Shown here: positions 1,136 through 2,718 of the stretch, one piece after another | Layout of the letters: each line of letters begins with the position of its first letter | Numbering within the stretch: the first letter of the stretch is position 1 | Source of the DNA: a virus | Taxonomy: Duplodnaviria; Heunggongvirae; Uroviricota; Caudoviricetes | IMG/VR virus record: IMGVR_UViG_2703718790_000002 | Length of the DNA stretch: 4,073 nucleotides | Direction: 5' to 3' (one strand) | The notes under the pieces: generated by a model | What the model was told of the DNA's origin: nothing | Seen by the model: the letters and a program-made list of their open reading frames with translations, nothing else | Databases searched by the model: none | Position numbers and translations under genes: made by a program

Positions 1136-2718
1136 TCTTCTCCTCCTCTGTTGATTGTCGCAGCCCGGATTCAAATGCCGCAGCCGCCCAGGCGGGCGGT
1201 TTAAGACCAGCTGCGCGGCGCTCCATCGTTTCACGGACCTGCTGGGCAAAAATTTCCTGATAGTCGTCACCGCGTTTCGCGCACTCTTTCTCGTAGGTGC
1301 TCAGTCCGGCTTCTATCAGCATCACCGCTTCCTGAACTTCTTTCAGACCATCGATGGCCATACGACCGGAGCCTATCCAGTCGCAGTTCCCCCAGGCACT
1401 GCGGGCTTCCTGAAAGCTGAAGCGCGCTTTTGAAGGTAACGTCACCACGCGGCGAACGATGGCCTCTTCCAGCCAGCACAGAAACATCTGGCTCGCCTGA
1501 CGGGATGCGACGAATTTTCGCCGCCCCATAAAGTACGCCCACGACTCGTTCGCACTGGCCCGTGCCGTGGAGTAGCTCATCTGGGCGTAATTCCGGGAAA
1601 GCTGCTCATACGAGACACCCAGCCCGGCAGCGATATACCGCAGCAGTGACTGCTCAAACACGGAGTAGCCGTTATCCGTGTCCTGAGCCGTCTGCAGGTT
1701 CAGTGAGTCCCCCGGCATCAGGTGCGGCACTTTTGCGCCTCCCAGACGGACCGGTGCTGCGGAAGTAATACGCGGCAATTTCACCAATCCAGCCGGTCAG
1801 CCTTTCCCGCTGCTCCTGACTGTTCGCGCCCAGAATAAAATCCATCGCTGACTGCGTATCCAGCTCACTCTCAATGGTGGCGGCATACATCGCCTTCACA
1901 ATGGCGCTCTGCAGCTGCGTGTTCTGCAGCGTGTCGAGCATCTTCATCTGCTCCATCACGCTGTAAAACACATTTGCACCGCGGGTCTGCCCGTCCTCCA
2001 CGGGTTCAAAGACGTGAATGAACGAAGCACGACCGCCGGGTAACTCGCGGGGTATCCATGTCCATTTCTGCGGCATCCAGCCAGGATACCCGTCCTCGCT
2101 GACGTAATATCCCAGCGCCGCACCGCTGTCATTAATCTGCACACCGGCACGGCAGTTCCGGCTGTCGCCGGTATTGTTCGGGTTGCTGATGCGCTTCGGG
2201 CTGACCATCCGGAACTGTGTCCGGAACAGTCGCGAGGGACGGGTATCCCAGGTGGCCTGAACGAACAGTTCACCGTTAAAGGCGTGCATGGCCACACCTT
2301 CCCGAATCATCATGGTAAACGTGCGTTTTCGCTCAACGTCAATGCAGCAACAGTCATCTTCGGCAAACTCTTTCCATGCCGCTTCAACCTCGCGGGAAAA
2401 GGCACGGGCTTCTTCCTCCCCGATGCCCAGATAGCGCCAGCTTGGGCGATGACTGAGTCGGAAAAAAGACCCGACGATATGATCCTGATGCAACTGGATG
2501 GCGTTGGCGGCATAGCCGTTATTGCGTACCAGATCGTCTGCGCGGGCATTGCCACGGGTAAAGTTGGGCAGCAGGGCTGCATCCACACTTTCACCCGGTG
2601 GGTTCCACGCCCGCAACTGCCCACCAAATCCGCTGCCACCGCCGTGATAACCGGCATATTCACGCAGCGATGTCATGCCGTCCGGCCCCAGAAGGGTGGG
2701 AATGGTGGACATTTTCAT
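1116..2718 (-). pseudogene. B: Portal protein gene (gpB-like) interrupted by a +1 frameshift, apparently a single-nucleotide insertion
   Basis: ATG at 2718..2716. The first 318 codons (2718..1765) read as portal protein, [14 protein letters not shown]…LTGWIGEIAAYY. That frame then runs 30 junk codons to a stop at 1672. The portal sequence continues in another frame from the codon at 1763..1761, SAAPVRLGGAKVPHLMPG…EEEKSDSRAA, to a TAA at 1118..1116. 318 + 215 = 533 aa, the lambda portal length, so one extra base in the A/T doublet at 1763-1764 explains the break. The track's 348-aa and 223-aa ORFs are the two halves. Confidence 0.85.
1140..1148 (-). promoter_or_regulatory. Strong Shine-Dalgarno site (GAGGAGGAG) for gene C, embedded in the portal 3' coding sequence
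   Basis: The reverse complement of 1136..1150 is caGAGGAGGAGaaga, followed by the GTG at 1135..1133. In the portal frame the same bases encode …TEEEKSD…. Confidence 0.6.

Follow-up and report, generated by a model that had tools for sequence, protein, structure and literature searches.

All the coding sequence of the window, that is, the whole stretch of 4,073 nucleotides that was analysed, lies on the minus strand, and its genes follow the order of the lambda head genes, A′-W-B-C/Nu3′ (Table 1). The gene order A-W-B-C/Nu3 is common to the window and to phage lambda, and the DNA of the window is 97.7% identical to that of lambda. Downstream of the large terminase gene come W, the portal gene (gene B) and C, in this order, and the B stop codon (1118-1116) lies past the start of gene C at 1135, which gives a 20-base overlap, as in lambda. 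The terminase part showed no difference when compared with the prophage of E. coli E2865. The Nu3 frame starts downstream of a deletion in gene C (see below); it shows no damage in the window, which does not reach its last 42 bases. A scan of the window against Rfam gave no match.

Table 1. Features of the window, with their positions, strand and the analysis on which each assignment rests
Feature	Position	Strand	Basis
Large terminase gene A, 3′ part, running off the window	2918..4073	-	ORF list, alignment
W, head-tail adaptor, 68 aa, intact	2715..2921	-	ORF list, translation
Portal gene B	1116-2718	-	ORF list
N-terminal portal ORF, 348 aa	1672..2718	-	ORF list
Portal codons 1-318, native frame, ending GWIGEIAAYY	1765..2718	-	ORF list, translation, Pfam
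Extra base, TT doublet where relatives have a single T	1763..1764	-	Global alignments, sequence view
Wrong-frame tail, 30 codons (FRSTGPSG...GSGHG), stop TAA 1674-1672	1672..1764	-	Translation
Chance motifs GGG-AGG (1743-1738, shifted frame) and GGAGG-N7-GTG (Val330, 1742-1726, true frame)	1726..1743	-	Sequence reading
C-terminal portal ORF, 223 aa	1116..1787	-	ORF list
Portal codons 319-533, 215 codons plus stop, true frame	1116..1763	-	ORF list, translation, Pfam
Gene C, 5′ four-fifths, with nested Nu3	1-1135	-	ORF list
Gene C as read, S49 prohead protease/scaffold, GTG 1135-1133, TGA 826-824	824..1135	-	ORF list, translation
Gene C lesion junction, 144 bases replaced by one T, net loss 143, frameshift	826..828	-	Alignment, translation
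Nu3 scaffold frame nested in the 3′ part of C, ATG 564-562	1..564	-	Translation, lambda nu3 coordinates

The window is 99.9-100% identical to the head modules of lambdoid prophages of Shiga-toxin-producing E. coli (STEC), the hosts being O26, O145 and untyped bovine and human isolates, and the same degree of identity was found with ten Stx1a-converting phages. In strain 01_3327 the same module sits in a lambdoid prophage that carries NleC. The module was matched in 3,578 of the 5,426 complete E. coli genomes. The relatives carry it in chromosomal prophages, and the closest ones hold 2-6 copies per genome; in E2865, the second copy encodes an identical gpC and a portal with one residue changed. 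At position 278 the window has G, as does 01_3327 but not E2865, and at position 2169 it has C, as does E2865 but not 01_3327. The combination of G278 and C2169 was present in none of the three aligned relatives (E2865, 01_3327 and the Stx1a phage LC645429). These two positions were considered as private substitutions and rejected as such, since each state is common to a relative. From these alignments, the backbone of the window is a distinct mosaic of known alleles.

The split portal gene and its product

An uninterrupted portal ORF of ~533 aa was not found in gene B, because the frame breaks after codon 318. The break is clean after GEIAAYY, with an overlap of the two ORFs at 1672-1787, as an earlier note on this DNA had claimed and as the ORF list and the translation bear out. 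Tyr318 is encoded by 1767-1765 and Ser319 by 1763-1761. The 30 residues read in the wrong frame are FRSTGPSGRRKSAAPDAGGLTEPADGSGHG, and codons 319-533 are now severed from their start codon. The two native parts sum to 533 aa (318 + 215), as the note had stated, which is the length of both the intact portal WP_001443752.1 and lambda gpB. The N-terminal fragment matched positions 2-257 of the Phage_portal_2 family (PF05136, E=1.8e-68) and the C-terminal fragment positions 276-354 (E=1.3e-24), which are contiguous halves of one model; an intact relative matched positions 2-354 (E=9.5e-97). After repair of the frame, the protein aligned end to end with lambda gpB over 533 residues. The sequence as written is a portal pseudogene.

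In the global alignment with the intact E. coli E2865 prophage, one portal base, window position 1763, remained without a partner. The plus strand reads GGAAGT in the window and GGAGT in the reference, and the coding strand TAT TAC TTC CGC in the window and TAT TAC TCC GCA in E2865; one T of the doublet is the insertion, and it shifts the portal frame after codon 318. The same single extra base was found in global alignments to 01_3327, to the Stx1a phage and to lambda. Apart from it, the portal DNA is identical to that of E2865; 01_3327 and LC645429 differ also at position 2169. The proposal that a single extra T:A pair at 1763/1764 splits the portal gene is supported by the comparison with every in-frame relative. 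The possibility, raised together with it, that the reference itself reads ttcc at this point and is in frame is not what was observed: the references, without the second T, are in frame at 533 aa. The alignment to the lambda portal recovered the extra base, but not the TCC assumed at codon 319. This codon is GCC (Ala319) in lambda, and TCC (Ser319) only in the closest relatives of the window; at the portal site, lambda-type alleles have G where the closest relatives have the single T.

The structure of lambda gpB (NP_040583.1) has been solved (PDB 8K38/8K39/8XOT). In it, the wing is formed by residues 24-249 and 368-452, the stem by residues 250-279 and 343-367, the clip by residues 280-342 and the crown by residues 453-511 (PMC10721106). 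The loop 303-319 is disordered, residues 320-324 pair with the C-arm of gpW, and Gln379 touches DNA (PMC10721106). The break after residue 318 corresponds to the end of the disordered clip loop, just before residues 320-324. Of the wing only the N-terminal segment is kept, of the stem only the first helix and of the clip only its first half; the other wing and stem parts are lost, together with the strand that binds gpW (320-324), the DNA-contacting tunnel loop and the crown. Judged by the solved lambda portal, the truncated product would be unable to form a DNA channel, and the allele as written would be null, because the channel-forming parts are missing (8K38 domain map).

Conservation of the site and possible recoding

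A 61-mer across the site gave 4,479 matches in the 5,426 complete E. coli genomes, none of them at 99% identity or higher, and megablast with a 31-mer centred on the extra base, for which a seed is possible only through the insertion, gave no match in the complete E. coli genomes. The wild-type 30-mer was present at 294 exact places in 139 complete genomes. The shifted allele was not found in the phage and plasmid collections (31-mer megablast), nor by exact DNA scans of IMG/VR (where the positive control worked), of the GTDB representative genomes and of the JGI metagenomes. At the protein level, the exact 348-aa product was absent from the gene calls of public assemblies, and exact-product look-ups with two start variants of the C-terminal fragment gave no match. 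Sixty genomes sampled at even intervals gave 56 full-length portal matches, of which 54 had the intact length of 1,602 bases. Copying of the shifted sequence from a diverged homologue was also considered: the 18-mer GCGTATTACTTCCGCAGC occurs in 6 IMG/VR contigs, with unrelated flanks, and these matches were attributed to chance. In all the collections compared, the extra base is private to this record and not conserved, and it appears not to be programmed.

The two overlapping ORFs jointly make one protein, as is the case at the +1 frameshift of prfB and at the -1 frameshift of lambda G/GT, and this arrangement is the one feature that speaks for programmed and conserved recoding of the portal gene. 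We consider such recoding extremely improbable, close to negligible. All the relatives examined are in frame, with 294 exact wild-type copies and no shifted one, and both lambda and the solved structure derive from a single 533-aa ORF. Programmed frameshifting was discarded because the two-frame arrangement is not conserved in the relatives. prfB and lambda G/GT differ from the window, where the arrangement is not conserved, a canonical slippery site accompanied by a stimulator is lacking and the ancestral gene was a single ORF. The region 1761-1767 contains no CUU-UGA and no Shine-Dalgarno stimulator, and the GGG-AGG located 8 codons downstream is equally present in intact genes.

It could also be argued that the broken gene still gives some working portal, either by a +1 slip or by the assembly of two polypeptides. 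GGG is a shift-prone Gly codon and AGG a rare Arg codon, and hungry AGG codons and GGG in the P-site favour +1 slips. A +1 slip at GGG-AGG would restore the true frame once 8 codons had been read out of frame, with 7 altered residues, and the slipped product would carry the peptide ...AAYYFRSTGPSGGAK...; a restart at GGAGG-N7-GTG (Val330), a good Shine-Dalgarno sequence followed by a start codon, could provide a partner for the 1-318 fragment. Furthermore, the loop in which the frame breaks (303-319) is exposed at the surface and lacks order in the solved structure, and 12 portal subunits suffice for a capsid. However, the two-frame arrangement occurs in no relative and has thus not been under selection, and a prfB-like CUU-UGA with an upstream Shine-Dalgarno sequence is absent. 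Both motifs are also present in intact relatives, which points to chance, the gpW-binding residues 320-324 would be changed or missing, and gene C is broken too. Hence, residual portal synthesis of this kind is highly unlikely.

A second lesion in gene C

The earlier note had overlooked a lesion in gene C, 940 bases from the portal insertion. The gene C product ends after 103 residues, whereas intact C has 439 aa, with Peptidase_S49 at residues 150-297. The loss amounts to 48 codons, M105-R152, plus one wobble base, and without the extra T it would be an in-frame 48-codon deletion. The junction reads GGG-TT-GAC, with no microhomology, and was not found in any collection searched, the exact DNA scans of IMG/VR, the GTDB representatives and the JGI metagenomes included. 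Two origins were tried and rejected. One would be a known in-frame 144-base deletion allele with an extra T, but the collections contained no allele of this kind; the other would be a clean deletion next to a GGT codon at Gly104, but this codon is GGG or GGA in lambda and in all the relatives. Each of the two lesions may be viewed as a T doubled at a variable site. Since gene C as written is also broken, so that two neighbouring essential head genes are affected, reversion of the portal lesion alone would be insufficient for a working head module.

A 103-aa C product is recorded in 50 index blocks of public assemblies. As representatives of the same deletion these were rejected, because in the places shown they were due to contig ends (L016-L020) or to another lesion (L015). 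In L015 (GCA_900449705.1), a different 1-base deletion in a GGGG run leads by chance to the same stop in C. At positions 5782-12707, each of the terminase, portal and major capsid genes of the module is called in several pieces, with five single-base deletions in the portal alignment and one more in gene C. L015 looks like a noisy long-read assembly, and it illustrates how modules gain false frameshifts. The short-read contigs, from at least five independent assemblies (L016-L020), end exactly at ...TATTCGGG, which is the left edge of the C lesion. Contig ends after ...CCGTATTCGGG (equivalent to window position 828) mark a fork in the assembly graph at a G/A difference between co-resident copies.

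The following course of events is proposed. One T would have been duplicated in portal codon 319 of an STEC-type lambda-like prophage. Ribosomes that start at the ATG at 2718 would add 30 wrong residues to 318 correct ones and stop at 1674-1672. The truncated portal would then end in the disordered clip loop, the dodecameric DNA channel would not be formed, and the lesion in the adjacent gene C would remove the prohead protease. Particles would be expected only with gpB and gpC from a co-resident lambdoid prophage; rescue in trans or recombinational repair is plausible. The claim that the phage cannot make infectious particles would apply only to the prophage by itself: the closest relatives carry 2-6 near-identical modules per genome, and packaging and transfer of defective EHEC prophages via inter-prophage interactions are known (PMC2669165).

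Origin of the lesions and comparison with known systems

We give an even chance to the reading that the portal lesion is a real, private, unselected and non-programmed loss of function and that the head module died recently. The caution that the indel could equally be a sequencing or assembly error stands: that the extra T, and probably also the C replacement, is a consensus, polishing or assembly artefact, and that the real portal is an intact protein of 533 aa, is a serious possibility, at somewhat less than an even chance. Over 4,072 aligned bases, the private differences of the window are two indel events and no substitution. An artefact would be in keeping with two private indels only 940 bases apart, unaccompanied by any private substitution, and with lesions that are both unique among all the collections searched, no second assembly carrying either of them. 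The module is also multi-copy, each genome of the nearest relatives having 2-6 places. Of the positions compared across a panel of 30 related loci, 5.8% are variable, and all three breakpoints fall on such positions, with T/G in the portal, G/A at the base where the loss in C begins and T/A at the base where the sequence resumes; the joint chance of this is ~1e-3 by post hoc arithmetic, and it too favours an artefact. The co-resident copies differ at these places (in E2865, the 61-mer has 4 places and the exact 30-mer 2), and the left edge of the C lesion is a fork point for public short-read contigs. Moreover, the C junction is without microhomology, unlike the repeat-mediated 46-base deletion in L026, and noisy assemblies of the same module exist, e.g., L015. 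With indels only, clustered and at variable sites, the pattern is more easily explained by a faulty consensus or assembly of a repeated prophage region than by two recent mutations that arose independently.

The actual bases, however, speak for real mutations. A mixture of T and G alleles would yield TG or GT and not TT, the joining of contigs at graph forks would not yield GGG-TT-GAC, and no artefact model that was constructed gives the bases observed. Systematic long-read errors are typical of homopolymers, and a single T that becomes two is no such context; neither a long homopolymer nor GATC or CCWGG was found nearby. The rest of the record is clean, and a loss of 144 bases is not a read-level error. 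In addition, private portal indels or truncations occur in other assemblies too, and lambdoid prophages of EHEC made defective by lesions of this type are well documented (PMC2669165). A real mutation and an artefact are nearly equally probable. It is also conceivable, although very unlikely, that both lesions are real and stem from recombination between co-resident, slightly diverged prophage copies, in which gene conversion would give heteroduplex mismatches at the variable sites and their faulty processing would yield the T duplication in B and the 144-to-1 replacement in C. If so, inter-prophage recombination would be a source of gene-inactivating indels at predictable positions.

If the lesion is real, the prophage would not be able to build its own heads, the portal and the prohead protease being gone, and any cargo of it would spread only with the help of sibling prophages. 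The head module of the relatives belongs to Stx1a-converting and NleC effector prophages, and the lesion thus bears on the mobility of the element; situations of this kind are already well known from EHEC (PMC2669165). Should it be an artefact, the practical lesson is that a private frameshift in a prophage module with several copies needs copy-specific read support before it is annotated as a pseudogene. Neither outcome raises a new question. The gene is very common among prophages, and its private frameshift is either an ordinary feature of a known kind or the result of faulty assembly. The one oddity is the position of the breakpoints, all of which are at sites where prophage copies differ.

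Compared with lambda gpB, the window has an extra T after codon 318, belongs to the Ser319 lineage, lambda having Ala319, and encodes a 348-aa product. The intact portals of EHEC/STEC, such as WP_001443752.1 (E2865) and WP_001415980.1 (01_3327), are all in frame with 1,602 bases, and none of these intact relatives has the gene C lesion. The Stx1a-converting phages LC645428-LC645437 have a matching portal region, which is without gene annotation in their records.

Other split portals are known from public assemblies. L024, L028, L030 and L025 carry private insertions (+G, +A, +C and +C, respectively, at about 5915-5975), and L026 a private 46-base portal deletion at 5973, between CCGGCTGG direct repeats. 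These five split portals are broken within ~60 bases of the window insertion and share the same 200-aa C-terminal ORF, but they were found through this shared ORF (106 index blocks), which selects this region and is not proof of a hotspot. In the single-base-insertion portals, both the positions and the inserted bases differ from those of the window, and the alleles are of the lambda type (GCC).

The prophage pool of E. coli O157 Sakai is comparable in kind, and contains multi-defect lambdoid prophages beside near-identical siblings able to provide lost functions or to recombine with them (PMC2669165). In contrast to this pool, the lesions of the window are private to one record, and the window covers 4 kb. 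As written, the window likewise carries inactivating lesions in lambdoid morphogenesis genes, gene B being frameshifted and the gene C product being reduced to 103 aa. Defective EHEC prophages are packaged, and some of them are transferred, via inter-prophage interactions (Asadulghani et al. 2009, PMC2669165).
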